In this document: piece after piece, positions 207 to 28,570 of the stretch
How the letters are laid out: the number at the start of each line of letters is the position of its first letter
Numbering within the stretch: position 1 is the first letter of the stretch
NCBI GenBank assembly: GCA_050290185.1
Contig: JBNKHE010000003.1
Span: 64,001 to 128,000, forward strand
Source: Pontiella sp.
GTDB lineage: Bacteria; Verrucomicrobiota; Kiritimatiellia; Kiritimatiellales; Pontiellaceae
Direction of reading: 5' to 3'
Length of the DNA stretch: 64,000 nucleotides
Made by a program: the position numbers and the translations under genes
Notes under the pieces: model-generated
Databases searched by the model: none
The model's input: only the letters and a program-made list of their open reading frames with translations
Told to the model about the DNA's origin: nothing

Positions 207-293
207 TAAAAGCGATTAGCGAATGGCTTTTGGCATATAGTTTTTAGCCAATAGCCAATAGCCAATAGCCAATAGCCAATAGACATGAGCCAG
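207..293 (+). repeat. 7-bp periodic array upstream of four-helix-bundle gene 1, with perfect (TAGCCAA)x5 at 245-279
   Basis: Units in one register: taaaagc gattagc gaatggc ttttggc atatagt ttttagc caatagc caatagc caatagc caatagc. Confidence 0.95.
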
Positions 294-303
294 CTGATTC
301 ACA

Positions 304-669
304 ATGCGTGACTATACAAAAATTAAAGCCTGGGCCTTGGCAGACGATTTTGCTGTCGAGGTGTATCGGCGTACAGCCAGTTTCCCGTCCGACGAAAAAT
401 ATGCACTGACTTCACAGGTCCGCCGGGCTGCGTATTCTGTAGCTGCCAACTTAGCGGAGGGGGCAGGACGGAGGACAAAAAAGGATTTCGTTCGCTTTCT
501 TGATATGGCGCTGGGGTCGGCCAATGAGGCGACATACTTTATTCATTTATCCCACCGGCTCGCATATCTTGATTCTGGCTCGTTTACTGTTTTAAGGGAT
601 CAGGCCGCATCGGTTAGCAGATGCTTGTCATCCTATATTCGAGCTGTTGAGAAAGATGTTAACCAATAA
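304..669 (+). CDS. Four-helix-bundle protein (TIGR02436 / 23S-rRNA-IVP / Avd-like family)
   Basis: 121 aa with family motifs FPSDEKYALTSQVRRAAYSVAANLAEG, F-x-RFL-x-MALGS-x-x-E. Confidence 0.92.
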   Translation: MRDYTKIKAWALADDFAVEVYRRTASFPSDEKYALTSQVRRAAYSVAANLAEGAGRRTKKDFVRFLDMALGSANEATYFIHLSHRLAYLDSGSFTVLRDQAASVSRCLSSYIRAVEKDVNQ

Positions 670-775
670 CTATTAACTAATAGCTCATAGCCTTTAGCCC
701 GAAGCTAATAGCCACCAGCTAACAGCCATCAGCTAATTACCACCAGCTAACATCTAACAGCCACCGGCCCATAGT
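664..775 (+). repeat. 16-unit degenerate heptamer array (consensus about TAACAGC/TAATAGC) beginning in the stop codon of four-helix-bundle gene 1
   Basis: caataac tattaac taatagc tcatagc ctttagc ccgaagc taatagc caccagc taacagc catcagc taattac caccagc taacatc taacagc caccggc ccatagt. Confidence 0.93.
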
Positions 776-991
776 CAGAGTCTGTATTTTCCCTTGTAAA
801 CCCTGCATTGTTCAAAATTTTCTGAACAAACTGGTTGGTTTTCGGGGCGGGGTTGTGGTTCCATCTTATTTGTACGCATTCGGACTGTCCGAAGGGTGCG
901 CCAGTCATATGAAATCCGCGTGTTCCATGCACCAAACTGGGACGGTTTTGCCGGAGAAACGGCAATCGACCGCGGGCGGCAGCCCGCGCAA

Positions 992-1195
992 ATGAAGCTA
1001 TCAGCCAACCACCGTTAGCTAACAGCTTCCGGTATCTCTGTGTGCGATCTTCGGTTCAGAAAACCCAACTGCTAAAGGCTATCAGCTAATGGCTATGCAT
1101 AACTCCTAAAACTTAACACTTAAAACCGCGAACTCCGCTCGCTTTCAACGGATTCAACGGTAATCAGTCCCGCTAATGGCTAAAAGCTAGGACTC
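992..1195 (+). repeat. Mosaic of short-period repeats (TAxCAGC 7-mers, TAAAACT 7-mers, TTCAACGGA 9-mers)
   Basis: tatcagc caaccac cgttagc taacagc; caactgc taaaggc tatcagc taatggc; taaaact taacact taaaacc; ttcaacgga ttcaacggt; taatggc taaaagc. Confidence 0.8.
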
Positions 1196-1294
1196 TAAAA
1201 TATCATTTCATAGTAGCGTCTACTTTTTTATTGTCTCATTTTAAATATGTGGTAACCATTGTTAATGGAATCTACTGTTTAATCTAGAGATTTA

Positions 1295-2452
1295 ATGAAA
1301 AAGAATGCGCTGATCACATATTTAATATTTATGACTTTAACATTTGTGTTTGCGGTTAGGAGTGCTTGTGCTTCGATCTTCAACGAAAACATCCATGCCA
1401 TGGTTTTGGGGCAGTCCAATATAGATGCCTATGTCGGCCCGGATGGGGTATATCAAGTACCGTGGCCTTCCGAACTGATTTCCGGTGTTACGAATGTGTG
1501 GAATTCCTTCTATGATAACAATGTGATCCGAAACTCGGGTAAATTGCGACGAAGATGGCTGACCGCTCTCGGACCAGATCTGTTCGGTGGATATGGGCTC
1601 TCCAAGTTATATGGCACGGTATACATAACGAAGTTTTCCAAGGGCGGATCCCCCCTGTCCGAATTCCAAACGACAGGAGCCAACTGGCCGCACATGGTGG
1701 CTGCGTACACAAATATGCAAGCCATCACGACAAACGCGGCAGGTCCGGTCGATGTGTTCTGGTGGGGGCAGGGCGAAGCCGACAAAACAAACACGAACTA
1801 TTATAACGATATGACCAACCTGTTCGCCAGTCTGGTATCCACCTTCGGGACAACGAATTCGGTGTTTGTCATTCAGGGGCTTGGTCCGTCCTTCACCAAC
1901 AGTGTTCCGCATTTTGCTTTTATGCAATATGCATCCGAAAATCCCGAAAGAGTGATTTACACGGACAATTCGGATCTCTCTTACTGGGATACTGTGAAAG
2001 TTCACTTCACTGCCGCAAGTCAGGTTGCCAATGGCTACCGTATGGCTGAGGCGACACTGCGCGTGATGGAAAAAACGACATGCACCTCATCGGGAACTCC
2101 CTACATGTGGCTTATCCGTCACGGCATTACTTCCGATTTTGGAATCGGGGAGATGGCTGATCAGGATGGAGATGGGTATAGCACGGCAGATGAATATATT
2201 GCCGATACGGATCCGTTCGACGCATCGGATGTATTTTCTGTTGCACTGGTGCCCTCCTCCCCGGGGGAGGCTTGGTCCATGAAATCTGCTCTTGGCAGGG
2301 AATACGGGGTGGCTACATGTACGAATCTTACTCAAGGTAGTTGGGAAGAGCCATATGTTTGGATTCCTGGAAGCGGCAGTGAAATTACGTTCTCGATAAC
2401 ACCGACGAGCTATCCAAACTTTTTCCAATTCGAGGTCAGACTCGCAGAATGA
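1295..2452 (+). CDS. Secreted sialate O-acetylesterase-like (SASA/CE6, SGNH) esterase with C-terminal DxDGDG/EYIADTDP module
   Basis: Signal peptide; GQSN, KGGS, WWGQGEAD and D-x-x-x-VHF motifs. Confidence 0.8.
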   Translation: MKKNALITYLIFMTLTFVFAVRSACASIFNENIHAMVLGQSNIDAYVGPDGVYQVPWPSELISGVTNVWNSFYDNNVIRNSGKLRRRWLTALGPDLFGGYGLSKLYGTVYITKFSKGGSPLSEFQTTGANWPHMVAAYTNMQAITTNAAGPVDVFWWGQGEADKTNTNYYNDMTNLFASLVSTFGTTNSVFVIQGLGPSFTNSVPHFAFMQYASENPERVIYTDNSDLSYWDTVKVHFTAASQVANGYRMAEATLRVMEKTTCTSSGTPYMWLIRHGITSDFGIGEMADQDGDGYSTADEYIADTDPFDASDVFSVALVPSSPGEAWSMKSALGREYGVATCTNLTQGSWEEPYVWIPGSGSEITFSITPTSYPNFFQFEVRLAE

Positions 2453-4093: not shown

Positions 4094-4101
4094 TCCGCAA
4101 T

Positions 4102-5767: not shown

Positions 5768-5770
5768 GGA

Positions 5771-10296: not shown

Positions 10297-11208
10297 ATGA
10301 AATTTTGGATTGTTACTCCCAGTTATAACCAACTGGAATGGCTTAAGTTGTGTGTCGCTTCCGTGGCCGATCAGGCGTCGGAAGATCGAGAGGGTGGAGC
10401 AGGGTGTATCGAGGTGCATCACCATATTCAGGACGCCCTGTCATCAGATGGCACTCCGGAATGGTTGGCAGAGCATGTTGCCCAAAAACCACCAACCATG
10501 AACTATCAATTGACCTTTGTTAGCGAAGCTGACGGAGGCATGTACGATGCTATCAACCGGGGTTGGAAGTGCGCACCGGAGGGGGTGGATGTGATTGCAC
10601 ATTTGAACTGCGATGAGCAGTATCTGCCTGGTGCTTTGCAAACCATCGCAACGTTCATGTCGAAGCATACCAAGGCAGATGTGGTGCTGGCCGATATGAT
10701 TGTGACCGATCGTGATGGGATGTATATATGCCATCGTCGTAGCCTTAAACCGTATCCGATCGTTTCAAAATATACCTGTGCGGGCTTCACTGCCGCCACC
10801 TTTCAGCGATCTTCGGTAACGAAATCCAAAAGAGTGTTTTTTGATACATCTTGGAAAAATGTTGGGGACATGGTTTGGTATAATTCATTACATAGCACTA
10901 ATTGTAGCTTTCGAGTCTGCAACGAAGTTGTCTCCCTGTTTACGGATACCGGAGATAACTTAAATTGGACGGATGACGGAGCTCGAGAGAAACAGCGGTA
11001 TATGAATGCTTTTCTAAGAGGAAGTCCCTTTGGGAGTATAGCCTTTTCAAAGCTGAATGGGTTTCGACGGTGGCTTAAGGAATTTTATACCCATGCGCCA
11101 TCCAGTTATTCAATATATGTTCAGGGAGTGGGCGAACGAGTATATAGAGAGATACTCCATCCTACAGGCCTATGGCATAAAAAACGAGCTAAGCTGGGTT
11201 CCGAATAG
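10297..11208 (+). CDS. Glycosyltransferase family 2 (paralog of 15942-17051)
   Basis: IVTPSYNQ, QDALSSDGT, GMYDAINRG, LNCDEQYLPG. Confidence 0.9.
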   Translation: MKFWIVTPSYNQLEWLKLCVASVADQASEDREGGAGCIEVHHHIQDALSSDGTPEWLAEHVAQKPPTMNYQLTFVSEADGGMYDAINRGWKCAPEGVDVIAHLNCDEQYLPGALQTIATFMSKHTKADVVLADMIVTDRDGMYICHRRSLKPYPIVSKYTCAGFTAATFQRSSVTKSKRVFFDTSWKNVGDMVWYNSLHSTNCSFRVCNEVVSLFTDTGDNLNWTDDGAREKQRYMNAFLRGSPFGSIAFSKLNGFRRWLKEFYTHAPSSYSIYVQGVGERVYREILHPTGLWHKKRAKLGSE

Positions 11209-11993: not shown

Positions 11994-12008
11994 TCTGGAA
12001 TTTGTCCT

Positions 12009-13319
12009 GTGAAAATCATTCAGGCTCACAACTATTACCTGCATGCTGGTGGCGAGGATGCGGTGGTTGCCGCGGAGCGGCAAATGCTTGAGATTCAAGG
12101 GAATATCGTTGTTCCTTACTATAAGAGTAATGAAGATATTGCGGCTTCTAGCAATAAGCTAATAGCTGTTGGCCAACTGCTAAAGGCTTCCCTTAGGACT
12201 ATCTGGAACCACCAGACGTACCGAGAGTTTCAGAAGCTACTTCAAAGTGAAAAGCCGGATGTGGTGCATTGCCACAACACCTTTCCGCTGATCTCTCCGT
12301 CGATCTACTGGGCCTGCGCGAAGGAAAAAGTTCCCGTTGTCCAAACTCTCCACAACTATAGACTCTTGTGCTTAAACGCTTTTTTGTTTCGAACCACGAA
12401 GAGTCACGAAAATAAGAACCTCTGCGACTCTGCGGCTTTGAGCGAGAATAAATCTGGTATATGCGAATTGTGCGTTAATAAATCCTTCAAGTGGCCCGGT
12501 ATCCGGTATCGCTGTTATCGCGGATCGTTGCCGGGGTCGCTCGTCGTTACGCTGATGCTTTTTGTCCACAAGCTGCGGGGAACTTGGACCAAAAAGGTAA
12601 CGGCCTACATTGCCCTGACCGAGTTTCAAAAACGGAAAATGGTGGAAGAGGGACTTCCGGGGGATAAAATTTTGGTGAAATCCAACTTCATCGACGATTC
12701 ATCGATGAAAGAGCCATTAGCCTCCAATGACTCTGTGCCCTCTGTGGTGGATAAACCGTACTGCATATTTGTGGGAAGGTTGAGCCCTGAAAAGGGGTGC
12801 GATGTACTGCTAAAAGCGTGGGCGCGTTTCGGGGAAATGCCAATAGCTAACGATCATCAGCCCCAGCTGCTTATCGCTGGAGACGGTCCCGAACGCGAAT
12901 CTCTCGAAAAGCTGTCTGCCGACCTCTGTCTGACGACCTCTGTCACATTTCTCGGCAAACAGTCAAAGGGAAGTGTACTTTCTTTAATGCGCAACGCGCA
13001 GTTTCTCGCGCTTCCCTCCGTTTGGTACGAAGGGTTTCCAATGACGATTGTGGAAGCATTTTCGTGCGGAACGCCTGTTGTTGCCTCCAATGACGGAGGA
13101 ATGCTGGATGTGATTGACGAAGGAAAAACCGGTTTGCTTTTTTCCATGGGCGATGTAAATGCGCTGGCGAACACGCTCCTATGGGCGTTTGAACATCTCG
13201 AAGAGATGGCATCAATGAGTGCTGCCGCTCACAAGGATTTTAGCGAGAAGTTTTCGTCGGACATCAACTATGGAGAGCTCATAGGGATCTATGAACGGGC
13301 GTTGGGCATCAGGTGTTAG
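12009..13319 (+). CDS. Glycosyltransferase family 4 with repeat-derived insertions
   Basis: HNYY..GGED, HCHNTFPLISPS, FVGRLSPEKG, PSVWYEGFPMTIVEAF. Confidence 0.92.
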   Translation: MKIIQAHNYYLHAGGEDAVVAAERQMLEIQGNIVVPYYKSNEDIAASSNKLIAVGQLLKASLRTIWNHQTYREFQKLLQSEKPDVVHCHNTFPLISPSIYWACAKEKVPVVQTLHNYRLLCLNAFLFRTTKSHENKNLCDSAALSENKSGICELCVNKSFKWPGIRYRCYRGSLPGSLVVTLMLFVHKLRGTWTKKVTAYIALTEFQKRKMVEEGLPGDKILVKSNFIDDSSMKEPLASNDSVPSVVDKPYCIFVGRLSPEKGCDVLLKAWARFGEMPIANDHQPQLLIAGDGPERESLEKLSADLCLTTSVTFLGKQSKGSVLSLMRNAQFLALPSVWYEGFPMTIVEAFSCGTPVVASNDGGMLDVIDEGKTGLLFSMGDVNALANTLLWAFEHLEEMASMSAAAHKDFSEKFSSDINYGELIGIYERALGIRC

Positions 13320-13329
13320 GATTTCGGTC

Positions 13330-15753
13330 ATGACTGTACTTTTCTTGTATATCATCACATTGTGCTCATTCACCTTCTATGGCGTGGTGGGCGAGGACAA
13401 GACATGGTTGCTGGCGCCTTTGTTTCTTTTCAGCTATGCGGCAATTACGATTGCCTTGCTGAAAAGAGCATCCTCCTTCGCTCAAGCTTCAGCGGACAGA
13501 TTTGGCATGGGGCATGGCAATGAGAAGCTAAGAGCTAATAGCCAACAGCCAACAGCCGGAGCATTGCTTATCCTTTTTCTCCTATGGGGAATAGCAATGA
13601 TCCCCCAGGCAACGGTGCCTTTCGAGTCAAAGCTGGTGATGCTGTTCATCGGCGGGGTGGTGGGGGCTTATCTCGTATGGGGCGGGGAACTGACGACGTT
13701 CAAGGACAACCGGCTTCTGTTGGGCTTCCTGATCTTTGTCGTGATGGGACTGGCGCTGTATGGCCTGATCATCTATTTCCGTTGCCCGGACAGGATCCTA
13801 TGGACGGAACGGTATGCCGACTATCCCGGTCGCTTGGCGTCGACCTATATCTGCCCGAATCACTTTGCCCATTTGATGCAGATGCTGATGCCGTTCTGCG
13901 CGGCGTTGCTGTTCATTCCCCAGACGGGCATCTTTCTGCGCCTGCTGGCGGGATATAGTTTGCTGGTGTTTCTTCCGCCCTTGTTCCTGACCGAATCGCG
14001 CGCAGGGTGGCTGGGTTCGATTGTCGGGGTGGGGGTCGTAGCCTGCCTGATGGCGCTGCGCCGCAGCAAAAAGTTGTTCCTGCTCCTGGTGATCTTCGTC
14101 CCGTTGTGTTCAACGCTCATCCTGTTCGCGGGATGGCGGTTTTCCGAAACCTTCCACCGCCGGGTCACACCGGTCGTGGAATTCCTGAAGTATCAGGGTG
14201 AAGAGGGCGTTGGCAGCGAGTCGAAGGATTTCCGGCCGCAGACCTGGATGGATACGATCGATATGGTCAAGGAGGCCCCGCTGATCGGTTTCGGACCGGG
14301 GAACTACCGGTATACTTTTCCAGAGCACCGCAATCGCTTCAAAGGACGCCAGGTTGTTACCGGCCACCCGCACAATGAATATCTGGAACTGATCGCGGAT
14401 TATGGGCTGATTGGATTTGCCCTGTTTGCCCTGGCCTGGATCTATGGTTTGATCCGGATCCTGATTGCGTCGTTGAAGTCGGAGGAAGTGCGCCATGCCT
14501 TCATCGGCTTTGCCTTTGTCGGCACCGCCGCTGGAACGATGGTCCACTCCTTCTTCGACTTCGAGATGCATGTGTATCCCAACGCGCTTGTTTTCGCGTT
14601 GCTGGCCGCCTTGGCCTGGGGACCGTTGGCCGCGCAGAAGGCAAAAGGCGTCAGGCGTCGGGCCCGGGACTCCAGAGACCATGAACCGCAAACGGCCAAC
14701 TCCAAACTTCACGCTGCATTTTCACACAGAGATAGCAGAGATAACGGAGGGCAGAAGTCAGCAGCCAGCTCCGAACTGTTGGTTCAAAATGATTCCCCAA
14801 CAATCAGCAACGTTCAACGTTCAACATTTAACGTGCAGCGTTTAGCAACATGGCTCCTTGCCATCGGCTACCTGTCGTTAACCGTTCTCTGTCTTCAGAC
14901 CATGTCGTCCGCCTTCATCCGTGCTATGGCGGATAAGAAGGTGGAGACATTGGTCACTCGCCATGCACCCAGCTCCAAGCTCCATGCACAGCATCTTTAC
15001 GAGCTGTCAGCTCGGATAGATGCTGCGAACTGGCGGGCGTACAAGGGGATGGCGGATTTACTCTCTAATCAGCGTTACTATTCGCTCGATATGGAGGAGA
15101 AGGTCCAGCTGGCCGAGGAGGAGCGTGGTTGGTACGAGAAGACCTATGTGCAGAATCCGAAGGATCCGGAGCTCATCTCTGCCTACGGAAAATGTCTCAT
15201 TTTTCTCGGAAATGCCGAGAGCATGGGACATAGGGCAGGGAGTCGGGTGGAAGAAATATCACGCAGCGATAGCGGAGACAGCGGAGAGGATAATGCAAAA
15301 CAAACGCTCTCTGTTAACGCTGTGCGAGATAATGATTCATTTACACCTGCAGAACTAATCGATCATGGACTGGAGCTGCTCCGCGAAGCGTGCAGCTACC
15401 GCCCATTCAACGATGTCTACTGGTGGACGCTGGGCGTGGAGTTGCGTAAGCTGGGTCGCTACGAAGAAGCGTTGGACGTATTTAAAAAGGCGCAGTCGAT
15501 CCGCCGTACGCCAACGACGGTCGCCAATATAAAGTGGATCGAGAAGCAGATAGCCCTTCGGCTTCACTCAGGGCAGGCAGGGGACGGGAGAAAGGACGCA
15601 GGAGCCAGGGAGCAGGAATCTGAGCCGGCAGAAAGGGAACCTCAAACCGCAAACCCCAAACCGCAAACCTCAACGAACTTCGTCCTCCCCGACCCGACCA
15701 ACGCAGCGGCTGATCCGGGGTTGATGAAGCTGCTTGACCAAATGGAAGAATAG
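13330..15753 (+). CDS. O-antigen ligase (WaaL/Wzy_C) family protein with C-terminal TPR-like region; several repeat-derived insertions
   Basis: TYICPNHFA, LTESRAGWLG, GFGPGNY, HPHNEYLELIADYGLIG, VHSFFDF; helical repeats at C-terminus; start uncertain. Confidence 0.85.
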   Translation: MTVLFLYIITLCSFTFYGVVGEDKTWLLAPLFLFSYAAITIALLKRASSFAQASADRFGMGHGNEKLRANSQQPTAGALLILFLLWGIAMIPQATVPFESKLVMLFIGGVVGAYLVWGGELTTFKDNRLLLGFLIFVVMGLALYGLIIYFRCPDRILWTERYADYPGRLASTYICPNHFAHLMQMLMPFCAALLFIPQTGIFLRLLAGYSLLVFLPPLFLTESRAGWLGSIVGVGVVACLMALRRSKKLFLLLVIFVPLCSTLILFAGWRFSETFHRRVTPVVEFLKYQGEEGVGSESKDFRPQTWMDTIDMVKEAPLIGFGPGNYRYTFPEHRNRFKGRQVVTGHPHNEYLELIADYGLIGFALFALAWIYGLIRILIASLKSEEVRHAFIGFAFVGTAAGTMVHSFFDFEMHVYPNALVFALLAALAWGPLAAQKAKGVRRRARDSRDHEPQTANSKLHAAFSHRDSRDNGGQKSAASSELLVQNDSPTISNVQRSTFNVQRLATWLLAIGYLSLTVLCLQTMSSAFIRAMADKKVETLVTRHAPSSKLHAQHLYELSARIDAANWRAYKGMADLLSNQRYYSLDMEEKVQLAEEERGWYEKTYVQNPKDPELISAYGKCLIFLGNAESMGHRAGSRVEEISRSDSGDSGEDNAKQTLSVNAVRDNDSFTPAELIDHGLELLREACSYRPFNDVYWWTLGVELRKLGRYEEALDVFKKAQSIRRTPTTVANIKWIEKQIALRLHSGQAGDGRKDAGAREQESEPAEREPQTANPKPQTSTNFVLPDPTNAAADPGLMKLLDQMEE

Positions 15754-15941: not shown

Positions 15942-17051
15942 ATGTTAATGCACTTTACCATAATCACCCCATCCTTCAACCAGCTCGGCTATCTCAAACG
16001 GTGTGTGGCTTCAGTCGCTGATCAAGTGACTGAAAGCATGGAACATGGAGCGGGGCGCATAGAGGTGTGCCACCATGTTCAGGACGGTGGTTCGACGGAT
16101 GGTGCCCGCGAATGGCTGGAGTGTTATGCGAACGAAGTCCGCGAGCAAAATACAGAGGACACAGGACAGAGGACGGAGGACTGCTCCCCTAATGCCGAAT
16201 GTCTAGCGCCTGGTGCCTACACTTTCACGTATGCAAGTGCACCGGATAACGGGATGTATGATGCGATCAACAAAGGTGTGGCCTTTGCGTTAAATCGGTC
16301 TACGACCTCGTTGAATTCGTTAAAGCAGGCTTCGCCTTCGTTAAATCCGTGCCCGAACGATTTCAACGTCTTGAACCTTCAACATTCAACGAAACCTCGC
16401 GACAGCGTGATCGCCTGGCTGAACTGCGACGAACAGTATCTGCCAGGAACCCTGCATAAGGTGGCGGTTTTTTTTGAGCAGCATCCGGAGGTGGATATTG
16501 TGTTCGGTGGCATGCTGATGGTGGATGAGGCTGGAAAGCTGCTGGCTTGCCGCAAGGCCATGCCGATGCGGCGGTTGTTCCTTGAGGCGTCTTATTTATA
16601 TAACTATTCCTGTGCGATGTTTTTTCGTCGATCGGCGTGGGAGAAGTTGGGCGGATTCGATTCAGCCTATCGCAATGCCGGGGATGAAGAGCTGGTGCGA
16701 CGAGCGATGAAGCTGGGGATGAAGACTGCTGTAGTGGATGGTTATCTTTCGGTCTTTACCTATGCAGGGCACAACCTAAGTTCGGAGGGGACGTCCGCCG
16801 TTCAGGAGCATGAGCGACTGAAACAATCAGAATCCCGGGCAAGCCGGTGGCTCCGTTTACCGATCAATCTGGCCCGGCTGGCGGAAAAGTGGATGCGCGG
16901 AGGACTACATGAGCGCGGGGCTTTAGTCTTTGAAATCTACACGGACCCATTGGAAGCGCGCTCCCTTTTTGAAGAGGATAACCCAAGTTGCCACTGGCCT
17001 GGTGAGGTGAAGCCGTATCTGCTCAATCATAGATTGAGCGATAGGCGTTAG
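15942..17051 (+). CDS. Glycosyltransferase family 2 with repeat-derived insertions
   Basis: IITPSFNQ, QDGGSTDG, GMYDAINKG, WLNCDEQYLPG. Confidence 0.9.
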   Translation: MLMHFTIITPSFNQLGYLKRCVASVADQVTESMEHGAGRIEVCHHVQDGGSTDGAREWLECYANEVREQNTEDTGQRTEDCSPNAECLAPGAYTFTYASAPDNGMYDAINKGVAFALNRSTTSLNSLKQASPSLNPCPNDFNVLNLQHSTKPRDSVIAWLNCDEQYLPGTLHKVAVFFEQHPEVDIVFGGMLMVDEAGKLLACRKAMPMRRLFLEASYLYNYSCAMFFRRSAWEKLGGFDSAYRNAGDEELVRRAMKLGMKTAVVDGYLSVFTYAGHNLSSEGTSAVQEHERLKQSESRASRWLRLPINLARLAEKWMRGGLHERGALVFEIYTDPLEARSLFEEDNPSCHWPGEVKPYLLNHRLSDRR

Positions 17052-17067
17052 GTATAGGTGTTGGGTC
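17034..17067 (+). repeat. G/T-rich degenerate heptamers (TTAGGTA/TTGGGT) upstream of four-helix-bundle gene 2
   Basis: ttgagcg ataggcg ttaggta taggtg ttgggtc; approximately the reverse complement of the downstream CCCAATA/CCTAA units. Confidence 0.65.
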
Positions 17068-17595: not shown

Positions 17596-18826
17596 TCCGA
17601 CGCGACACCGTCGCGTGGCTATCGATCTGGTTCCGATTCGTGTCGGCGAGGGCGGGACGGGGAGTGGGATCTGGACCTACGCCCGCGAGCTGCTCCTTGC
17701 GATGGATCGGTCGGAGGTCCATGAACTGGAAATCCTTGCGCTGGTCAATGAAGGCCAAGTGCCGTTTTTGTCGGATTTGAAACATATTCGGTTGGTGCGC
17801 TTTCGCGGGGGAGGAAAGAGCATCATCCGGCGATTGTTTTGGGTCCATCTGCAACTGCCGCTCCATTGCTTGTTCAGACGGGTGGATGTGCTCCATAAAC
17901 TGGCGACCGATACGCCGCTGTTTTGTCACTCCAAACGGGTGACCACCATCCACGATTTTTATTACGAGTTCTTGATGGAGCAGCGATCCAGGGAAAGCAT
18001 CCGGCTCTACGAACGTGTGGAGAGCGCTTATTTTTCGATGGTGACAAAAGCCTGCTTCAAGAAATCAAACGCCATTATTACCGTATCGAACGCCACCCGG
18101 GAAGAAGCGGTTCGACGCTATCCCGGTTCCAAAGATCGCATTGCCGTGATTCATCATGGGGCGCCGTACTTGCAGCCGATAGCCGATAGCCGACAGCCAA
18201 GAGCCAAAGAGTCATCCGCACTTCCGTCATCAACCATCAACCATCAATCATCAACGGATATTAAACGTGACGCGTTCAATATCCTCTGCGTCGCCAAGTT
18301 CATGGAACACAAGGGACAGCACCTTCTGCTCAAGGCGTTTGAGCGGTTGCTTGCAGAACACCCTGAGTGTGCGGACACGACCAGACTGACGCTCCGCGGT
18401 TTTCATAATGATTCTGACTATTACGAGGCGATTTGCCGAAAGATCAACGATAGCCGATATGCTTCGAATATTGATCTTGTGGCCTTCGATCCCAAGGACA
18501 CCATCGGGGACATATACCGTAATGCGGATCTGGTGGTTCTGCTTTCGGGTTATGAGGGATTTGGTCTGCCGGTTTTGGAGGCCCAGTCGATGGGCGTGCC
18601 CGTGTTGTGTTCCGACCTGCCGGTCTTGCGGGAGGTCGGTGGAGATGGAGCTGTATATGTAGCGAGGGACGATATAGAACGCGTGGCTAGAGCTATGCAT
18701 CGGTTTATTTTCGATGTCGATTATTATGATGCCCTGCGGAATGAAGCCTCTGGAAATATCCAGCGGTTTTCATGGAACTTAGCCGCCGAGAAGACCTTGA
18801 ATGCCTATGCAATCTGTTTCGCTTAG
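17513..18826 (+). CDS. Glycosyltransferase family 4 (mannosyltransferase-like); start uncertain (17513/17558/17615)
   Basis: VTTIHD, IITVSNAT, HKGQ, SGYEGFGLPVLEAQSMGVPV. Confidence 0.9.
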   Translation: MSKSKHRAPLNTQYTMPVSQYPIPNTQCPTRHRRVAIDLVPIRVGEGGTGSGIWTYARELLLAMDRSEVHELEILALVNEGQVPFLSDLKHIRLVRFRGGGKSIIRRLFWVHLQLPLHCLFRRVDVLHKLATDTPLFCHSKRVTTIHDFYYEFLMEQRSRESIRLYERVESAYFSMVTKACFKKSNAIITVSNATREEAVRRYPGSKDRIAVIHHGAPYLQPIADSRQPRAKESSALPSSTINHQSSTDIKRDAFNILCVAKFMEHKGQHLLLKAFERLLAEHPECADTTRLTLRGFHNDSDYYEAICRKINDSRYASNIDLVAFDPKDTIGDIYRNADLVVLLSGYEGFGLPVLEAQSMGVPVLCSDLPVLREVGGDGAVYVARDDIERVARAMHRFIFDVDYYDALRNEASGNIQRFSWNLAAEKTLNAYAICFA

Positions 18827-21161: not shown

Positions 21162-21231
21162 CGAGCTTGAATATTCGATTGGGTGTACGTTGATAATAGA
21201 TGGCTTGGCACCGTATTTTCTGGAGTGGTCA

Positions 21232-23706
21232 ATGGGTACTTTTTTAATCAAATGGGGAAAATGGTTTACACCGGTCCTGGGATGCATTGCGGTCTTCCTG
21301 CTGCTGCACTACCTGCAAAAGATGGGGGGCTACCAATTGCCCGCGTGGATAGTGGGTACAATGGGCGCGGTGAGTGGAATTACCCTGCTCGGGTATCTAC
21401 TGCAACTACATGTATTGAACCGGATCGGGGGGGTGTTTCTTCTGGTAGTGGCCGTGGTATGTTTGGTGGGTATGTTGCTGCCGGCCGAAACCATAGGCGA
21501 ATATCCGCACAAAGCATCCGCAGTGGTTGCCCATGATTTCGACGCAGCCTGGAAAACGGTCTATGGCCATGACCTATTCAAGGAGTTCAGCCTGCACCGG
21601 AACCTGATGCAGTATGCCAAGAGCTTGTCCAGTTTCGATATTCACCGGGCGGGTCAGATGGGGCTGTTCGGTATTTTTGGCCTTGCGATGGGAATCTGCT
21701 TTCTCTTTCCCATAGACCCCTCCTCCCTCCGATGGCGCTATTCCAGTCGGGTTCTACTGCTGTGTGTTGCGGGAGCGCTATGGTCCTTGCTGCTGGAACT
21801 GTTGCAGACGCTATCACCAACGCGTGAAGTCTCTTTTGGGGGTTTTCTTGAGAGCACAATCGGGGTCTTCGCGGGGACGCTGCTGTTTGCTCTATGCAAC
21901 ACGGTCTATGTCTCTCGAAAAAGGATGCTTGAGGATCGGCGCTTCAACGTGCTCGGCGTAGGTATTGATGCCGTGGATATGGAGGACTGTCTTCAATTAT
22001 TTCAGGAGATCATCGGCCAACAGGCACTAGGCAATGGGCATAAGGCATTAGGAGAGAGGGCTAACAGCCAAGAGCCAAGAGCTGACAGCTCATACTACTA
22101 TCCCTCACAGGAGGAAACCGGGGGGTTGGATCTCGGAAGCGCGGCGCAGACTCCTAAATCGGAAATCGGAAATCGGAAATCGGAAATTATTCTATCTTCC
22201 GGTCTCAAAACCCGACTGCCGGCCATGACCACTGCGATGGGCGTGGCGGGGATCGTGGAGTCGCGCCGCAACCAGAAGCTCCAGCGCATCCTGAACGAAT
22301 CGGTGTTGAACACGCCTGACGGCATGCCGTTGGTCTGGTTGGGCAAATTGTTCGGCTATCGAAATGTCGAGCGCGTATATGGTCCCGATCTGCTGCGAGA
22401 TGCCTGTGCCTATGGGGTAGATAAAGGATGGCGGCACTATTTCTGGGGGGCTGCGCCGGGGATTGTCGAGAAACTAAAAGTAGTGCTGGAAGAGAAACAT
22501 CCCCTGATCCAGATTTCAGGGATCTGCTGTCCACCGTTTCGTCCGTTGACTCAGGAGGAAGAGGATGCGCTGGTGGAGGAAGTGAATTCAGCCGATACCG
22601 ATATTTTCTGGATCGGGATCAGCACGCCGAAGCAACTTTATTTCATGGATCATATCCGCGATCGGCTGAACTGCAAAGTCATCTGTCCGGTGGGATATGC
22701 CTTCGATGTGAATGCCGGGGTGGAGAAGGATGCGCCGGACTGGATCAAGTATGCCGGGCTTCAATGGCTGCACCGCGGGATCAAGCAACCGCGCCTCTGG
22801 AAACGCTATCTGCCGGACAATCCCGCGTTTGTACTCAAGGTCTTTTCCCAACTGCTGCACCTGAAACGGTTTACCATGTTCGTGCATGAACGCCCGATTG
22901 CCCCCGTAACCGATGCCGAAGGGTTCCCTCGTTTTCCGGCCGGTGCAGTGGCGCTGTCGGCCATGAGCATGCGTGGAGCGCGTGATCGCGTCGCACACTG
23001 GATCGAATCGGGGAAAAAACACTACGTCAATATCTGTACGGCGGATACCGTTGTGCAGTGCTACGACCGGCCCGACCTGGCAAAGATTGTGATGAATGCC
23101 GGGATGGCTACAACCGACGGTATGCCACTGGTTTGGCTTGCCCATCATTTTGGTTACACGGATGCGACGCGGGTCTATGGGCCGGATCTCATGCTTGAGC
23201 TTTGTGCCTTGAGCGAAATGAAGGGCTATGCCCATTATTTCTACGGGGCGACTGATGAGGTGCTGGAGCAATTACGGATAAACCTGCTGGAAAAGTATCC
23301 GCAACTGAAGATTGCGGGCATGTATGCTCCGCCTTTCCGTCCGCTCACCGATGCCGAGAAGGAGGACGTGGCGGAACGGATCAATGCCGCGAAGCCGGAC
23401 ATCGTCTGGTGCGGGCTGGGAACGCCCAAGCAGGACTACTGGGTGGCGGAATTCCGCCCGCGCCTGAATGCAGCCGCCATTCTGGCCGTGGGTGCTGCCT
23501 TCAACTTTCACGCCGGGCATGTGACACAGGCCCCGCGCTGGATGATGAAGTCCGGTTTGGAATGGCTTTTCCGCCTATGCGTTGAACCGCGTCGTCTCTG
23601 GCGCCGGTACATCATTGGCAATCCTCGTTTCGTTTGCCAAACCCTAAAGCAGTGGATCCGTGCGCGCCGAATTCGGAAACGGCTTGCCGCGATCGAAACT
23701 CCATAG
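21232..23706 (+). CDS. VanZ-like membrane domain fused to two WecB/TagA/CpsF (GT26) glycosyltransferase domains
   Basis: ELLQTLSPTRE (VanZ-like); two copies of DGMPLVWL..RVYGPDL..PPFRPLT..TPKQ..PRxLWxRY. Confidence 0.88.
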   Translation: MGTFLIKWGKWFTPVLGCIAVFLLLHYLQKMGGYQLPAWIVGTMGAVSGITLLGYLLQLHVLNRIGGVFLLVVAVVCLVGMLLPAETIGEYPHKASAVVAHDFDAAWKTVYGHDLFKEFSLHRNLMQYAKSLSSFDIHRAGQMGLFGIFGLAMGICFLFPIDPSSLRWRYSSRVLLLCVAGALWSLLLELLQTLSPTREVSFGGFLESTIGVFAGTLLFALCNTVYVSRKRMLEDRRFNVLGVGIDAVDMEDCLQLFQEIIGQQALGNGHKALGERANSQEPRADSSYYYPSQEETGGLDLGSAAQTPKSEIGNRKSEIILSSGLKTRLPAMTTAMGVAGIVESRRNQKLQRILNESVLNTPDGMPLVWLGKLFGYRNVERVYGPDLLRDACAYGVDKGWRHYFWGAAPGIVEKLKVVLEEKHPLIQISGICCPPFRPLTQEEEDALVEEVNSADTDIFWIGISTPKQLYFMDHIRDRLNCKVICPVGYAFDVNAGVEKDAPDWIKYAGLQWLHRGIKQPRLWKRYLPDNPAFVLKVFSQLLHLKRFTMFVHERPIAPVTDAEGFPRFPAGAVALSAMSMRGARDRVAHWIESGKKHYVNICTADTVVQCYDRPDLAKIVMNAGMATTDGMPLVWLAHHFGYTDATRVYGPDLMLELCALSEMKGYAHYFYGATDEVLEQLRINLLEKYPQLKIAGMYAPPFRPLTDAEKEDVAERINAAKPDIVWCGLGTPKQDYWVAEFRPRLNAAAILAVGAAFNFHAGHVTQAPRWMMKSGLEWLFRLCVEPRRLWRRYIIGNPRFVCQTLKQWIRARRIRKRLAAIETP
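22156..22187 (+). repeat. Perfect (AAATCGG)x4+AAAT tract inside the GT26 gene
   Basis: Direct reading; encodes KSEIGNRKSEI. Confidence 0.95.
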
Positions 23707-24048
23707 CCCGCAGATGGTCGCAGAAGATCGCGGATACACTTTACACGGTCTCCGATTCTGAGGTAAGAGCCATCAGGCTCAGACTCGTACGGGAATCAAC
23801 GAAGCTGCCGGAGGGAAACCTTCCTTGATTCATCAACCTCTGATTGCTCGGCTAGCTCGGCGTGACCAAACCGATGGAATGGACATTATCACACAGAGAT
23901 AGCGGAGATAACGGAGGTTTGTTACTGCCCGTCTCTACTTGCTCCGTTCGCTCTGCTTGTGTATAGGCTGTTGCCGACTCGCCCTGAAATGCAGTATTTC
24001 AGGGCTTTTTTGTTTACATCTCCTCAGCGGACCAACTAGCGTTTAGAT

Positions 24049-25845
24049 GTGCCAGTTCGCCGTTCCATATTAGTCCCGGTCTTGACCGCCATGCTGTTGT
24101 TTGTCGTGTATTCGTTCACGGCTCCGCAGAACCATAGCGAAGCTGAGGATGTTTACGATTTTGCGCTGAAGGTGGAGCAGGGGCATTTTGCAGATCAGGC
24201 CGGCGTGAACCGCGTGCTGGCGCTCCCTGCATTGGGGGTGGCGTACAGGGCCGCACAGTTGTTGGGATATGATGGCCGTGCCTTTCCATTCATGATCATC
24301 ATCAACCGTTTCCTCGCCGTAGTCTGTGTGTTTCTGTTCTACCACCTGCTCACTCTGGCGTACCGCAGGCATCCTGCCTTCCCTGGATCCGCTTCCCTTT
24401 CGCCTAATACCTTCCCAAACCATCAACCATCAACCAGCAACCAACAACTAGTAACCGCTCTTCTGTTGGCCTTCTCCTACGGCTTCTGGCGCTACGCCAA
24501 CGAAGCGGAAACCTACATCCTGGCAAGTGTTCTAGTGCTTGGAGCCTGGTGTCTGGCCATTGGCCAGCAATCAGCAATCAGCGACCGGCAGTCAGCAAAA
24601 GACAACGGTTCTCCGACTTCCTCCCTCCCTCCGGAACGTAGGCTCCTCCGGGCCGGAGGCCGTCCTTGGTTTACCCTCCTCTGTCCTCTGGTTTCCGCTT
24701 TCGGCATTCTGGTGCATCTACTGAACCTGGTGCCGCTGCTGTTGATCATACCCCTGTACTATCTGTTTTCCGGGAAATGGAAGAACGCAGTGTTTCATGG
24801 CCTGATGACAGGGGGGCTGGTCGGATTGGGCTACGGACTCTGCTTCCACATGCTGGATTGGGGCAATCTGGGCGCACATGATCAACCGTTGGAAGCCGGC
24901 TTCAGCCTTTCGAATGTGCTGCGCGGGGGTATCGCCTCCGGCCAATGCCTGGTATCGGGCAACTTCCTGTTCGGGTTCGAGTCGTTTCGTGATGCCCTGA
25001 TCAACCTGTTCCCTTCGCGCATGCTGGGGGAAGAGTTTTACATGGCGTCGCACATGCCTGACTGGATCAAATGGGCGGGGTGCGTGACGATCACAGCGTT
25101 TTCGGTTTGCAGTTTGTGGTTTGCGTTTAAGTGCTGGCAGAGCCAAAAGGCATGTTGGAGCAGTAGCGAAATGCAGTCTTCTGCTAACTTCAAAACGAAA
25201 AATTCAAACATACGGCCATTAACCATTTCATCCGCCATCTGGTTGCTCCTGTATGCTCTAGCCGTGATCCACACGGAGGCGGGTAGCCCGGAATTATGGA
25301 TCATGGCATTGATTCCCTTTTGGCTTATCGTCGCTCCGCTCCAACAAAGAGCATGGGGCATGGGGCATGGAGGAAGCACAATCGCTATGGATAGAACGGG
25401 CAGGATTTGCTCTTGGGGATTGGTCCTTGCACTTTTTTTACATAATCTGGTAGCGGGGTTGCTCCCCGTTATGTCAAACGCGTCCGACTATCATGTGGCC
25501 AAGGGAAAATGGCTGGTGGAGCACTGTGGCCCGCAGGATCTGATATTGACCGACTACGAGCCGGTAATGGTTTTTTACCTGGACTATTATGTAGCCGGCG
25601 ATGTGGTCAGCAGTGGGGCCATGAATGCGCCGGATATCGAGCGAAAGCTTGGAACGCGAACGGGAAACGCGTACGCTTTGGCTTCTTTTTTCCGGCCCAT
25701 GGAATCGATGCGGGTGCGCAACCCGAAGCAATATGCTCGAATGGTGGCGACCGGAGAAGCGCTGCAATCCGGGTTTGTAAAAATTGAAGACGATGAATTT
25801 GGTGGCGTGTGGGAGTTTAAGGAGCAGTTGAATATTGATAAATGA
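24049..25845 (+). CDS. Polytopic membrane protein, possibly GT-C-fold glycosyltransferase-like, with repeat-derived insertions
   Basis: Many TM segments; acidic EAEDVY after TM1; FSYGFWRYANEAETY. Confidence 0.6.
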   Translation: MPVRRSILVPVLTAMLLFVVYSFTAPQNHSEAEDVYDFALKVEQGHFADQAGVNRVLALPALGVAYRAAQLLGYDGRAFPFMIIINRFLAVVCVFLFYHLLTLAYRRHPAFPGSASLSPNTFPNHQPSTSNQQLVTALLLAFSYGFWRYANEAETYILASVLVLGAWCLAIGQQSAISDRQSAKDNGSPTSSLPPERRLLRAGGRPWFTLLCPLVSAFGILVHLLNLVPLLLIIPLYYLFSGKWKNAVFHGLMTGGLVGLGYGLCFHMLDWGNLGAHDQPLEAGFSLSNVLRGGIASGQCLVSGNFLFGFESFRDALINLFPSRMLGEEFYMASHMPDWIKWAGCVTITAFSVCSLWFAFKCWQSQKACWSSSEMQSSANFKTKNSNIRPLTISSAIWLLLYALAVIHTEAGSPELWIMALIPFWLIVAPLQQRAWGMGHGGSTIAMDRTGRICSWGLVLALFLHNLVAGLLPVMSNASDYHVAKGKWLVEHCGPQDLILTDYEPVMVFYLDYYVAGDVVSSGAMNAPDIERKLGTRTGNAYALASFFRPMESMRVRNPKQYARMVATGEALQSGFVKIEDDEFGGVWEFKEQLNIDK

Positions 25846-25929
25846 TGATTGATGGGTTTTGCCGGGAATCGCTATTCCGAACAACAATCATTCAACAATT
25901 TAGCAACAAATTGAGCGGAGCGAAAGAAT

Positions 25930-26928
25930 ATGGGTAAGATGCTGGTCACAGGGGGGTGCGGTTTCGTGGGCCGCCATTTGATCGATCGACTGCTAACGGC
26001 CGGTCACGAAGTCCATTGCGTGGATATCATGGAGCCATTGAGCGGGGCGATTGCACCTGAAGCATGGCCGCTGTTCCGTCCGCTGGATTATGCCAACTTC
26101 CACTATTATGCCGAAGATTGCCGCGATTGGTTCAAGCGGATGCAGGCTTCGGAGTTTGACTATGCCTTCCATCTGGCCGCTATGGTGGGCGGCCGCGCCA
26201 TGATCGAAAACAATCCACTCGCCGTGGCCGACGATCTTTCCATCGATGCCGAATACTGGCAATGGGCCGTTAAGGCCAAGCCGGGCAAATCGATTGTCTT
26301 CAGTTCGAGCGCAGCCTATCCGATCCATCTGCAGCGTCCGGATCACTACATGTTGCTGAAGGAGGACATGATTTCCTTCGATGAAGGCCTGGGGATGCCT
26401 GATATGACCTATGGCTGGGCGAAGCTGACCCATGAATACTGTGCGCGGCTCGCCTATGAAAAGCATGGTCTCAAGTCCGTGACCTATCGGCCGTTTTCGG
26501 GATACGGCGAAGATCAGGACGATACCTATCCGTTCCCCAGTATCTGCAAGCGCGTACTGGCGAACCGCGGGGCCAGTGAAATCGGGGTCTGGGGCAGCGG
26601 GCGACAGATGCGCGACTTTATCCATATCGATGATTGCATAGAGGGCGTATTGCGCACCATGGATCAGATTGATGATGGATCCGCGATCAACCTTTCCACG
26701 GGCATCTTCACCAGCTTCATCGAGTTCGTACAGCTCGCTGCGGATATTCTTGGATTCCAACCCGAGGTCAAGGGAACATCCAATACCCCGGAGGGCGTAT
26801 TTGCGCGGGGAGGGGATACCGCCTTCCAGCAGCAACTCGGTTTCCGCTATTCGCGCTCCTTCCGCGACGGCATCCACCGTGCCTTGGATTATTTTCAGAT
26901 GACCTCCGTGCAGGATATGAAGAAATAG
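25930..26928 (+). CDS. NAD-dependent nucleotide-sugar epimerase/dehydratase
   Basis: TGGCGFVG, FHLAA, SSSAAY, YGWAK, VWGSGRQMRDFIHIDD. Confidence 0.92.
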   Translation: MGKMLVTGGCGFVGRHLIDRLLTAGHEVHCVDIMEPLSGAIAPEAWPLFRPLDYANFHYYAEDCRDWFKRMQASEFDYAFHLAAMVGGRAMIENNPLAVADDLSIDAEYWQWAVKAKPGKSIVFSSSAAYPIHLQRPDHYMLLKEDMISFDEGLGMPDMTYGWAKLTHEYCARLAYEKHGLKSVTYRPFSGYGEDQDDTYPFPSICKRVLANRGASEIGVWGSGRQMRDFIHIDDCIEGVLRTMDQIDDGSAINLSTGIFTSFIEFVQLAADILGFQPEVKGTSNTPEGVFARGGDTAFQQQLGFRYSRSFRDGIHRALDYFQMTSVQDMKK

Positions 26929-26964
26929 AACTAGTAAAACATACTAGTAGTACGTATTTTATGG

Positions 26965-28416
26965 ATGTTTTTGAGAAGGGGACGTTTGAGAAGAGACATC
27001 GTCAGTATTGATTCAAATGAGCGGCAACCGAAGTTCTATCGTCGGTTCGCGCTGAATGCCATGGCCATCGCGGTGGCGGATGCCATCGTATTGGCATGTG
27101 TGTTGTGCCTGGCGAACCTCATGTTGCTATGGATACGGGACATTCCTTTTTCCATTACATACGGATTCCTGATTATCCCGCTCTGGACGGTCGCATCGAT
27201 GATTGCGCGCCTTCTTCCGGGATGGGGCCTGGGCGTGGTGGATGAACTCAGGAAGACCCAGGGCACCCTGTTTGTCATGTTCGTTACCTTGCTGCTCGTA
27301 TCGTTCTTTACGAAAAAAACGGTGGCTGGAAGCAGTCGTATCATCTTCATTGCGACCTACCTGTTCAGTGCTGCCTTCATTCCTTTTGCCCGCGCATTCA
27401 CGCGGGGCACCCTCATTCGTCTGGGCCTGTGGGGGATTCCGGTTTCGATCTATGGCGATGCCGATTCCGTTTCCACCGTGATTGAGGCGTTGAGAGCGGA
27501 GAAGGGCCTTGGGTATATTCCGGCAGCGGTCTTTAGCAACGAGGTCCCGCAGGGCAATGTGATCAATGGCGTCTCGGTGCTTGGGCATTTGCGCAATACA
27601 ACCTATCGAACTCCGGTGGCCATCATGGCGTTGGCACAGGCATCGCGGCACCAGCTGATCGATACACTGGAAGGACCGTTGGAAGTCTATCGCAGAGTGA
27701 TACTGATTCCCGACCTGAAGGAAGCGCCCTCGCTGTGGGTGGTGCCGCGGGACCTGCAGGGCATCCTCGGACTGGAGATTACCAAGAACCTGCTCAATCC
27801 GTTTGCCCGGATCTTTAAGCGTACCATCGATCTGCTGCTGGTAGGTGTGACGGCTCCGCTCTGGGCGCCGTTGATGATTCTGCTCTATGTGATGATATGG
27901 ATGGAGGACCGTCATAATCCGATGTTCCTGCAGCCGCGGGTCGGGCGCGGGGGAGGGACCTTCCGTACCGCCAAGTTCCGCACCATGGTGCCCAATGCGG
28001 AAAAAGTTTTACAGCAGGCCTTGAAAAAAGATCCGGTTCTGCGTGCCGAGTGGGAGGCCAATTTCAAGTTGAGGAGGGATCCCCGCATTACCAAGGTCGG
28101 AAATCTCCTGCGCAAAACCTCGTTGGATGAAATTCCCCAGCTGTTGAACGTAATACGGGGGACCATGTCGCTGGTGGGACCGCGACCGTTGCCGGCCTAC
28201 CACTTCAACGACCTGCCCGAGCAGGTTCGATTCCTGCGGCACAAGGTCCAGCCGGGCATTACCGGATTGTGGCAGGTTTCCGGTCGTAGCGAGGCCGGTA
28301 CCGAAGGCATGGAAAAGTGGGATCCGTACTATGTTCGCAACTGGTCGATCTGGCTCGATATCGTGATCATTGCGCGAACGTTCAAGGCGGTCTGCCGCGC
28401 CCATGGGGCTTATTAG
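26965..28416 (+). CDS. Undecaprenyl-phosphate sugar phosphotransferase (WbaP-like initiator)
   Basis: N-terminal TMs; KFRTM, DPRITKVG..LRKTSLDEIPQL, SLVGPRP, PGITGLWQVSGRS. Confidence 0.92.
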   Translation: MFLRRGRLRRDIVSIDSNERQPKFYRRFALNAMAIAVADAIVLACVLCLANLMLLWIRDIPFSITYGFLIIPLWTVASMIARLLPGWGLGVVDELRKTQGTLFVMFVTLLLVSFFTKKTVAGSSRIIFIATYLFSAAFIPFARAFTRGTLIRLGLWGIPVSIYGDADSVSTVIEALRAEKGLGYIPAAVFSNEVPQGNVINGVSVLGHLRNTTYRTPVAIMALAQASRHQLIDTLEGPLEVYRRVILIPDLKEAPSLWVVPRDLQGILGLEITKNLLNPFARIFKRTIDLLLVGVTAPLWAPLMILLYVMIWMEDRHNPMFLQPRVGRGGGTFRTAKFRTMVPNAEKVLQQALKKDPVLRAEWEANFKLRRDPRITKVGNLLRKTSLDEIPQLLNVIRGTMSLVGPRPLPAYHFNDLPEQVRFLRHKVQPGITGLWQVSGRSEAGTEGMEKWDPYYVRNWSIWLDIVIIARTFKAVCRAHGAY

Positions 28417-28570
28417 TTGTTCGTTGATTGTTGTTAGGTTTTCGCGAAGCTTTGCTTGCATTCTGCGCATTATCCGTGAAACCCGTCACTTGACAACGCC
28501 CAACAGATGCACGGACTTCCCAGCCCCGGCAACTATCATTCATCAATCAACAACCGATGCCCGTAGCACC

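Follow-up and report, generated by a model that had tools for sequence, protein, structure and literature searches.

The stretch of DNA analyzed here (the window) comprises 64,000 nucleotides of Pontiella sp. (Verrucomicrobiota, Kiritimatiellia; assembly GCA_050290185.1, contig JBNKHE010000003.1, positions 64,001 to 128,000). It contains a polysaccharide locus encoding a flippase, a sulfotransferase, glycosyltransferases of families 2 (GT2) and 4 (GT4), a Wzy-TPR protein, WecG, an epimerase and a WbaP-type transferase. Two genes of a four-helix-bundle family sit among protein genes here, not within an rRNA gene, and the locus is strewn with short tandem arrays of 7-base units. An earlier note had proposed that each of the two proteins recognizes its own heptamer on the long transcript, or alternatively that the arrays derive from a mobile cassette of gene and repeats. 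Judging from the comparison of loci described below, the protein and its heptamer are cognate at the cassette level. Our preferred reading, held with moderate confidence, is that the arrays are arms of a DNA-level selfish cassette, whose protein would help to copy cassettes and arms through cognate DNA recognition. The loose runs in the operon are likely left-over or copied cassette arms, and not an mRNA regulatory code.

Both genes belong to the expected four-helix-bundle families, scoring 110 and 114 bits with TIGR02436 (cut-off 24) and 112 and 115 bits with PF05635 (cut-off 33.8). In the Pfam and NCBIfam profiles they match four-helix-bundle families only, with no HUH/Y1 transposase. Two further TIGR02436 genes lie directly upstream of the window in the same locus, which thus holds four of the six TIGR02436 matches of the genome; five of the six have arms, of differing families, one of them with period 9.

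At a threshold of 16 matches of 21, bases 1-29,000 contain 16 period-7 arrays and bases 29,001-64,000 none; at control periods 4-6, 8-13 and 15 there are none in bases 1-29,000 (period 14 is a harmonic). At 15/21, there are 24 period-7 arrays in 1-28,800, compared with a mean of 0.14 (maximum 2) in 200 codon-block shuffles of the window, and a single array beyond 28,800, at 38,889, which is intergenic. The arrays are not confined to the locus, the whole genome having 126 of them (15/21) against 18-28 at five control periods. An assembly artefact is excluded, because long contig pieces of three DNA runs (two possible sources) match the window without differences. The segments 23743-23794 and 21431-21465 also occur on unrelated contigs of the sequencing runs, which suggests that there are more dispersed repeats. 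The genes and arrays are the following.

211..296, + strand: upstream arms of gene 1; a degenerate left half (211-236), then AATAGCC x5 (245-282), local pairing possible
304..669, + strand: four-helix-bundle gene 1, 121 amino acids, TIGR02436 and PF05635, of a clade with mostly AGC(T/C)-core arms
657..771, + strand: downstream arm of gene 1, AGCTAAT / AACAGCC units
996..1190, + strand: loose right-type arms of several families, the clearest being AAAACTT at 1095-1134
10481..10514, + strand: weak in-frame array in a GT2 loop (10291 gene)
13297..13324, + strand: weak left-type array at the end of the 12009 glycosyltransferase, within its last codons
13521..13562, + strand: in-frame AACAGCC array in the Wzy-TPR gene; orthologues have other families at this slot
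14631..14842, + strand: stacked in-frame arms in a Wzy-TPR loop, four heptamer runs and a GxxExxY-type 9-mer
14955..14992, + strand: degenerate in-frame array, Wzy-TPR
15593..15679, + strand: left-type, then right-type (AAACCGC) arrays near the Wzy-TPR C-terminus
16144..16218, + strand: in-frame left arm (GACAGAG) and right arm of another family, GT2 loop
16290..16400, + strand: in-frame inverted pair of the 9-base CGTTAAA/TTCAACG family, a family that also forms the arms of the TIGR02436 gene at C3:54983
17040..17066, + strand: left arm of gene 2, beginning at the upstream stop codon
17126..17500 (alternative start 17129), + strand: four-helix-bundle gene 2, 124 amino acids, TIGR02436 and PF05635
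17489..17605, + strand: right arm of gene 2, AACCTAC, then CCCAATA x4; partly the N-terminus of the next glycosyltransferase
18166..18261, + strand: GT4 inter-domain linker, with two right-type arrays (AGCCGAT, CCATCAA) in frame that two orthologues lack
22011..22195, + strand: VanZ-WecG linker, with a GGCACTA left arm and two right arms (AAGAGCC, AAATCGG) stacked in frame; orthologues have differing families
23705..23930, no strand assigned: intergenic 9-10-base repeats, similar to GxxExxY arms
24411..25382, + strand: membrane protein with five arrays in frame, located in loops and at hydrophobic-helix edges
25826..25910, + strand: left-right pair without a gene, at a gene junction
28408..28563, no strand assigned: left-right pair without a gene, between convergent stop codons

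The two genes are indeed bracketed by different families, as had been noticed, but the brackets are inverted arms, G/T-rich on the 5' side and A/C-rich on the 3' side. Their extent was also revised: the 5' arm of gene 2 lies at 17040-17066 and its 3' arm runs into the next gene, while gene 1 has a local left-right pair upstream and further right-type arms downstream. Most of the families named earlier were found in the genes to which they had been assigned; a single weak array lies in the 10291 gene, and all that the 12009 gene has is a weak one in its final codons.

The same architecture is observed in other genomes. We gathered 201 loci, 190 of them with full flanks (90 order-level, 25 phylum-level and 75 cross-phylum). 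Period-7 arrays flank the gene in 66/90, 22/25 and 51/75 of these loci, respectively, and occur 1 kb away in 5/25, 2/23 and 6/62, so the suspected enrichment next to TIGR02436 genes is supported. Inverted-repeat scores of at least 10 are seen in 81/90, 25/25 and 68/75 loci. Among 80 metagenome loci, 8 of which were dropped for short flanks, 58 of the 72 usable ones have period-7 arms. The upstream array begins at most 15 bases from the upstream stop codon in 48/66 loci, and the gene is co-oriented with both neighbors in 84/117. Arms of 4-5 units are frequent (68/139 upstream, 92/139 downstream); the units are mostly of 7 bases, with 8 or 9 in some clades. The number of TIGR02436 matches per genome reaches 23. 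Longer relatives of the suffix-domain type, two of them confirmed as TIGR04258, have no period-7 arrays (0/4). A longer four-helix-bundle gene at G000:C6:232778 resembles this type and also has no period-7 arms. A second, unrelated cargo family with the arm-gene-arm layout is GxxExxY (TIGR04256), a gene of which, at G000:C2:323001-323348 (L258), lies between perfect inverted arms with 9-base units; similar 9-mers are found in the window at 14719 and 23893.

The repeat unit can be predicted from the protein sequence. The two arms of a locus are inverted copies of each other in 73 of the 92 loci with clear arms on both sides, compared with 7.6% across loci. The frequency of unit matches rises with protein identity, from 6-7% below 50% identity through 25% at 50-60% and 69% at 60-70% to 85-100% in the higher bins. 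In particular, 16.6% of 145 cross-phylum pairs with at least 50% identity match, versus 6.7% in the permuted data (p 0.0002; 93 dereplicated loci, GC-stratified permutation), and above 55% identity the match is seen in 10/30 cross-phylum pairs. As a hold-out, 55 metagenome loci had a usable profile; taking the unit of the most similar training protein gave the correct prediction in 23/55 of them, against a background of 6.2% (22/40 at 55% identity or more, 1/15 below). Hence the predicted covariation of clade and heptamer is borne out. In a quick tree, given as an illustration only since 70 of its 151 inner branches are unresolved, clades share unit cores across phyla, and one period-8 clade spans three phyla with weak support.

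These data bear on neutral slippage with hitch-hiking, in which the host has a 7-base duplication bias, the gene is simply carried along with its flanking DNA, and the repeats are not read by the protein. Some constraint seems needed for a non-coding unit to be kept at 55-65% protein identity, and across phyla, as unconstrained non-coding DNA would be randomized; moreover, the suffix-domain-type relatives have no arrays. The loose families of this genome, which do not favor the resident genes (see below), the long higher-order arrays of G163, which look slippage-like, and the existence of gene-less, array-rich genomes agree with slippage, which we nevertheless consider improbable.

An association with the gene is also seen at the level of whole genomes. 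In 251 genomes of the phylum, a four-unit period-7 pattern, a period-10 control pattern and TIGR02436 genes were counted (tables transcribed by hand). Array density correlates with the TIGR02436 number (Spearman rho 0.62; period-10 control -0.14), the direction being the same in 17 of 18 families and 14 of 16 genera. The median period-7 excess is 48.5 per Mb in the 54 genomes with at least five genes and 0 in the 84 gene-less genomes, the latter value again speaking against slippage. Of 132 own matches, no more than 8 are found at up to 400 bp from a gene, and rho is still 0.29 after subtraction of 12 matches per gene. Seven of the 84 gene-less genomes have a ratio of at least 4, two of them with tiny counts; the single-contig G230 is one of the seven. 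G230, G087 and G193 are rich in heptamer arrays, and a TIGR02436 search at E 0.05 finds nothing in them, which may mean recent loss or another cargo family.

For eleven genomes picked by hand for a low gene number and a high array number, nine of them with listings, resident arms were compared with dominant families. With a pattern that detects only some families, the resident arm is a dominant genome family in 5/9 genomes (G103, G163, G190, G203, G207); in G203 the resident gene is broken and six matches are listed, and in G207 the arm matches one of two families. In certain genomes, solitary arms that copy the resident gene's arm number in the hundreds. A 400-kb portion of G103, picked because matches were listed there, has 59 solitary arrays out of 64, on either strand, and 5 paired ones; the runs consist of four units in 40/68 cases and include the arm's hairpin or tail in 50/68. 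A discrete solitary element of this genome (L393-L412) consists of a GC hairpin, four AAC(A/G)GAG units and a second hairpin. Period-8 arrays are as common in these 400 kb (77 vs 66). In Xanthomonas campestris, the gene of Xcc0516, a solved pentamer of the family, has four GGGAATC units over its start, and this repeat family is described as having 186 genome copies (PMC4692102); four units are also the reported mode of heptamer repeats elsewhere (PMC4692102, PMC2700814).

Arrays within genes are, as far as alignments of orthologues tell, in-frame inserts in tolerant loops, with the family swapped between orthologues. In five window proteins, 52% of array-coded residues fall in gap columns, compared with 9% of the rest, and their mean identity is 0.14, compared with 0.51. 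Orthologues have other families at the same loops, often as clean left-right pairs, or a short loop; short loops prevail in the small gene-less genomes G020 and G036. The inserts are 30-340 bases long, with changing tandem families, and 2 of 22 in the locus are paired. The arrays at 24537-24597 and 25095-25130 code for hydrophobic-helix edges (for instance the periodic VLGAWCL), in place of the unrelated sequence present in G020 and G036.

Complete cassettes are inserted immediately after stop codons and, in other cases, within genes, where they split the host gene or keep its frame open, which supports the alternative, raised earlier, of a mobile gene-and-repeat cassette. In G042, a complete four-helix-bundle cassette occupies the Wzy-TPR loop equivalent to 14631-14842, which is short in five orthologues; its left arm is translated as the end of the first Wzy-TPR half, and its right arm codes for the start of the next helix. 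At four loci (L132, L137, L270, which is the same as L015, and L171) cassettes lie in DNA methyltransferase genes, with the host frame open through them, so that the DNA is dual-coding; the host gene of L137 was confirmed as BREX-1 PglX. In L263 (G296:C32), a cassette with GGGAATC arms lies in a restriction-modification methyltransferase, whose N-terminal half is fused to the four-helix bundle, and the second half is in another frame, open across the cassette, possibly constituting a repeat-length switch. The +2 frame is open in 7/188 genes, compared with 0.7 expected.

If selection acted on pairing of the arms in the transcript, G-U oppositions should exceed A-C ones. In 185 stems from 222 dereplicated cassettes, 220 G-U-type and 233 A-C-type mismatches were counted (in 74 and 68 cassettes), while 62 terminator-like hairpins of the genome, serving as a control, have 37 and 13, respectively. 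Thus, there is no G-U excess in the arms, and a strand-symmetric, DNA-level constraint seems favored. Predicted RNA folding of the two window cassettes is no better than that of shuffled sequences (z -0.82 and -0.90); for the part of the in-gene inserts that was folded, z is mostly weak, with a few values of -2.3 to -4.1. These observations disagree with an RNA intervening sequence, whose arms would pair in the transcript, with RNase III cutting the stem and the protein binding the excised or folded RNA. Such cutting would also break the host genes that read through a cassette, and the dispersed arms of G103 are mostly solitary, on either strand. On the other hand, Coxiella's 23S rRNA intervening sequence (IVS), described as cut by RNase III, shares both the protein family and the heptamers (PMC4990558), Avd, a protein of similar fold, binds RNA (10.1101/2023.10.23.563531), and the prevalent co-orientation of the gene with its neighbors would also fit. 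On balance, we regard an RNA element of this kind as quite improbable.

The genome-wide scan shows that period-7 arrays are not evenly dense: 28 of the 126 lie within the 40-kb locus, an approximately 19-fold enrichment. The others, on both strands, occur at junctions such as rplS-rnhB and ribH-nusB (gene names assigned by eye from their translations). An inverted partner at a distance of up to 250 bases exists for 21 of the 74 junction arrays (far control 3), and 23 of 24 paired arrays have the G/T-rich arm on the 5' side and the A/C-rich arm on the 3' side. A look for other cargo genes beside the loose arrays of this genome showed mostly housekeeping neighbors (translations judged by eye), and a phage collection of 50,697 records gave one weak match. 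The enrichment in the polysaccharide locus recurs in the same locus of four relatives (20-75 arrays per 100 kb vs 4-8 in other stretches), and within the phylum 12 of 49 loci have a sugar-pathway neighbor. Across phyla no such link was seen, with such neighbors at 3/78 loci and 2/60 random pieces, as found with lineage-derived queries that may miss distant homologues.

The local enrichment and the cognate relation of protein and unit are both in line with the regulon proposed earlier, in which each paralog would bind its own heptamer on the polysaccharide transcript in a TRAP-like manner, for termination, processing or stability. In-gene arrays of the locus are, moreover, A/C-rich on the coding strand in 19/22 cases, but selection on stop codons and loop residues would explain this strand bias equally well. 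A TRAP-like ring RNA regulator is matched to a conserved single-strand repeat track in the regulated transcript, and here no conserved track matching the resident genes was found: families are not conserved between orthologues, the loops are often empty, and arrays occur genome-wide at unrelated junctions. Loose arrays match one of four resident heptamer families in 36/120 cases genome-wide and 9/23 in the locus, where the unit of gene 1 has three loose copies and that of gene 2 none. The poor resident match, the swapping of families and the strand symmetry therefore make a TRAP-like code on the transcript unlikely, and among the explanations considered here the regulon appears the least credible.

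The structure model of gene 1 is all-helical (predicted local distance difference test score 96.8) and closest to Xcc0516 (2GSC; Z 21.0, root-mean-square deviation 1.0 over 113 residues), followed by BT_0352 (Z 15.9) and Avd (Z 14-15, deviation 1.7-1.9 over 106-112 residues, 12% identity); other bundles have Z of 12.6 and less. The solved structures of the family, 2GSC and 2RLD, contain five chains each. The supposed relation to Avd of diversity-generating retroelements (DGRs) therefore holds for the fold. It does not extend to a basic character, as proteins of the family are not generally basic, with a modest median net charge of +1. With the Avd profile, gene 1 scores 23.6 bits (cut-off 80) and gene 2 has no match, and a PF00078 search of the genome gave no intact reverse transcriptase, only fragments on two tiny contigs. 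Residues Q38, R41, S45, N49, E52 and E75 are invariant in the family alignment, a set partly gathered with a pattern that itself contains S45, N49 and E52. The same motif, and the presence of the TIGR02436 family in cas loci, have been noted before, with repeats not featuring in the available parts of that account (PMC3936711).

In Avd, RNA is reported to lie over the barrel, and the protein is required for cDNA synthesis (10.1101/2023.10.23.563531). This is among the grounds for a different mechanism, in which the pentamer would be a cofactor and a host polymerase would add about four protein-determined units at breaks or hairpins, so that repeats are written in place. Agreeing with it, the unit and even the period follow the protein clade, the invariant residues are polar, and one family replaces another at homologous slots, and helix edges are overwritten. 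However, the hairpin or tail of the cassette arm in most solitary G103 runs (50/68) points to copying of a defined unit, the right arm in G042 encodes a helix without any writing, and the genome has reverse transcriptase only as fragments. Writing in place hence seems hardly probable. By analogy, the whole, very widespread family could tentatively be pictured as a sequence-programmed repeat engine, the pentamer together with a host polymerase writing or copying about four units of a 7-base (or 8-9-base) word genome-wide, which is a rather doubtful possibility.

In the preferred reading, that of a DNA-level selfish cassette, the cassette consists of a left arm, the four-helix-bundle gene as cargo, and a right arm; the protein would recognize its own repeat unit on DNA, the pentamer possibly engaging 4-5 units at once, and would in this way help single arms and entire cassettes to spread by copying to other sites. 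As the protein has neither a nuclease nor a polymerase domain, the copying itself is assumed to be the work of host enzymes of repair or replication. Runs would be left where the cargo is lost or a single arm arrives; within genes they would persist only in tolerant loops and with the reading frame intact, and repeated visits of different cassette families would stack arms in the same loops, as seems to be the case in this operon. A scar at every former cassette site was considered and rejected: a period-7 scar (score of at least 13, background 8.4%) was found at only 1/9 junctions that are filled in relatives and empty here; therefore single arms probably spread too.

This low number of scars is also one of several points that weigh against the cassette reading. 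By eye, two diverged empty/filled junctions revealed no target-site duplication or fixed terminus, and the fold comparison of gene 1 gave no catalytic fold for mobility. Contigs of the same population contain no array-length or excision variants, though contigs drop rare variants. Loose arrays of this genome match the resident genes no better than they match four random order-level cassettes (p 0.13), the difference from cassettes of other phyla being p 0.04. The single-contig genome G230 has many arrays and no TIGR02436 gene, the dominant families of G222, G176 and G106 have no matching resident gene, and in G129 the one gene seen does not match the dominant family. Moreover, the pairs in the covariation test are related through clades and not independent, and recent horizontal transfer of gene and arms could give part of the signal.

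Several other features were observed in the region. The segment 4150-4600, between the flippase and the sulfotransferase, has no long open reading frames and by eye resembles a decayed minus-strand transposase. The gene at 21091-23706 fuses a VanZ-like domain to two WecG domains, with a third copy in G016, and the gene at 28571-30493 (minus strand) fuses a GHMP kinase domain to a GalU-like nucleotidyltransferase. In G026:C17, the junction of the 21091 and 24049 orthologues holds several small inserted genes, toxin-antitoxin-like by eye, among its repeat arms.

The cassette differs from REPIN-RAYT systems, DGRs and rRNA intervening sequences in one defining feature each, and works most like REPIN-RAYT. 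In the latter, as reported, the gene is flanked by its own repeat family, protein type is tied to repeat type, and there are many gene-less copies, often as inverted pairs (PMC3337134). Here the protein type is likewise tied to a genome-dispersed repeat type, weakly so in this genome. As for gene-less inverted doublets, the prevalent form in REPIN-RAYT, 21/74 junction arrays are paired here and 5/64 arrays in G103. However, RAYT is an HUH tyrosine transposase and REPs are palindromes of about 20 bases, whereas here a four-helix bundle without a known catalytic fold is accompanied by tandem 7-mers, and the gene itself moves and multiplies. Intervening sequences of 23S rRNA (S23p / PF05635; Coxiella, Leptospira) share the protein family and the inverted ends, the Coxiella one having three to four tandem heptamers (GACAGAT) before the open reading frame (PMC4990558). 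In contrast, the cassettes described here lie outside rRNA, at operon junctions and inside protein genes, with many unit families, thousands of gene-less arms and no sign of selection on a sense-RNA stem. From Avd they are set apart, despite the similar fold and the pentameric relatives, by 12% identity, a score below the Avd cut-off, the lack of an intact reverse transcriptase and a generally non-basic protein. Rickettsia palindromic elements, repeat-derived sequences inserted in-frame into protein genes (PMC10969869), resemble the in-gene arrays in the in-frame insertion, but are elements of about 150 bases with a conserved peptide, unlike the short tandem arrays of many families swapped between orthologues.

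Cyanobacterial STRR sequences are likewise heptameric long simple-sequence repeats. Heptameric repeats of Xanthomonas (GGGAATC), Beggiatoaceae (TAACTGA) and Geobacter (Gmet_H4) have period 7 and a mode of four units, and are described as mostly intergenic, on both strands, in convergent pairs, with some in genes (PMC4692102, PMC4679880, PMC2700814). The accessible portions of these papers name no link to a four-helix bundle, and the main text of PMC4679880 contains no mention of helix bundle, S23 or intervening. In the literature searched, which covers few subscription journals, no paper linking the TIGR02436/S23p family to heptamer arrays was found. The new elements here are the protein-to-unit rule, the genome-level link between genes and arrays, the lack of G-U bias and the in-gene insert nature of the arrays.

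For the window, the arrays would be a record of repeated visits, not a regulatory circuit. More generally, the results connect the function of the S23p/TIGR02436 family with the excess of 7-base repeats in Xanthomonas, cyanobacteria, Beggiatoaceae and Geobacter, and since the unit is predictable from the protein, purified proteins and short DNA arms would allow a direct test of this link. Should a protein that has no nuclease domain prove to drive dispersal, the selfish element would be of an undescribed kind, and one that also reshapes proteins through added in-frame loops, split genes and overlap with defence methyltransferases. If the family does act as a repeat engine, it would be the source of the unexplained bacterial heptamer excess and a steady supply of loops and helix ends, and would constitute a transposase-free class of selfish element.

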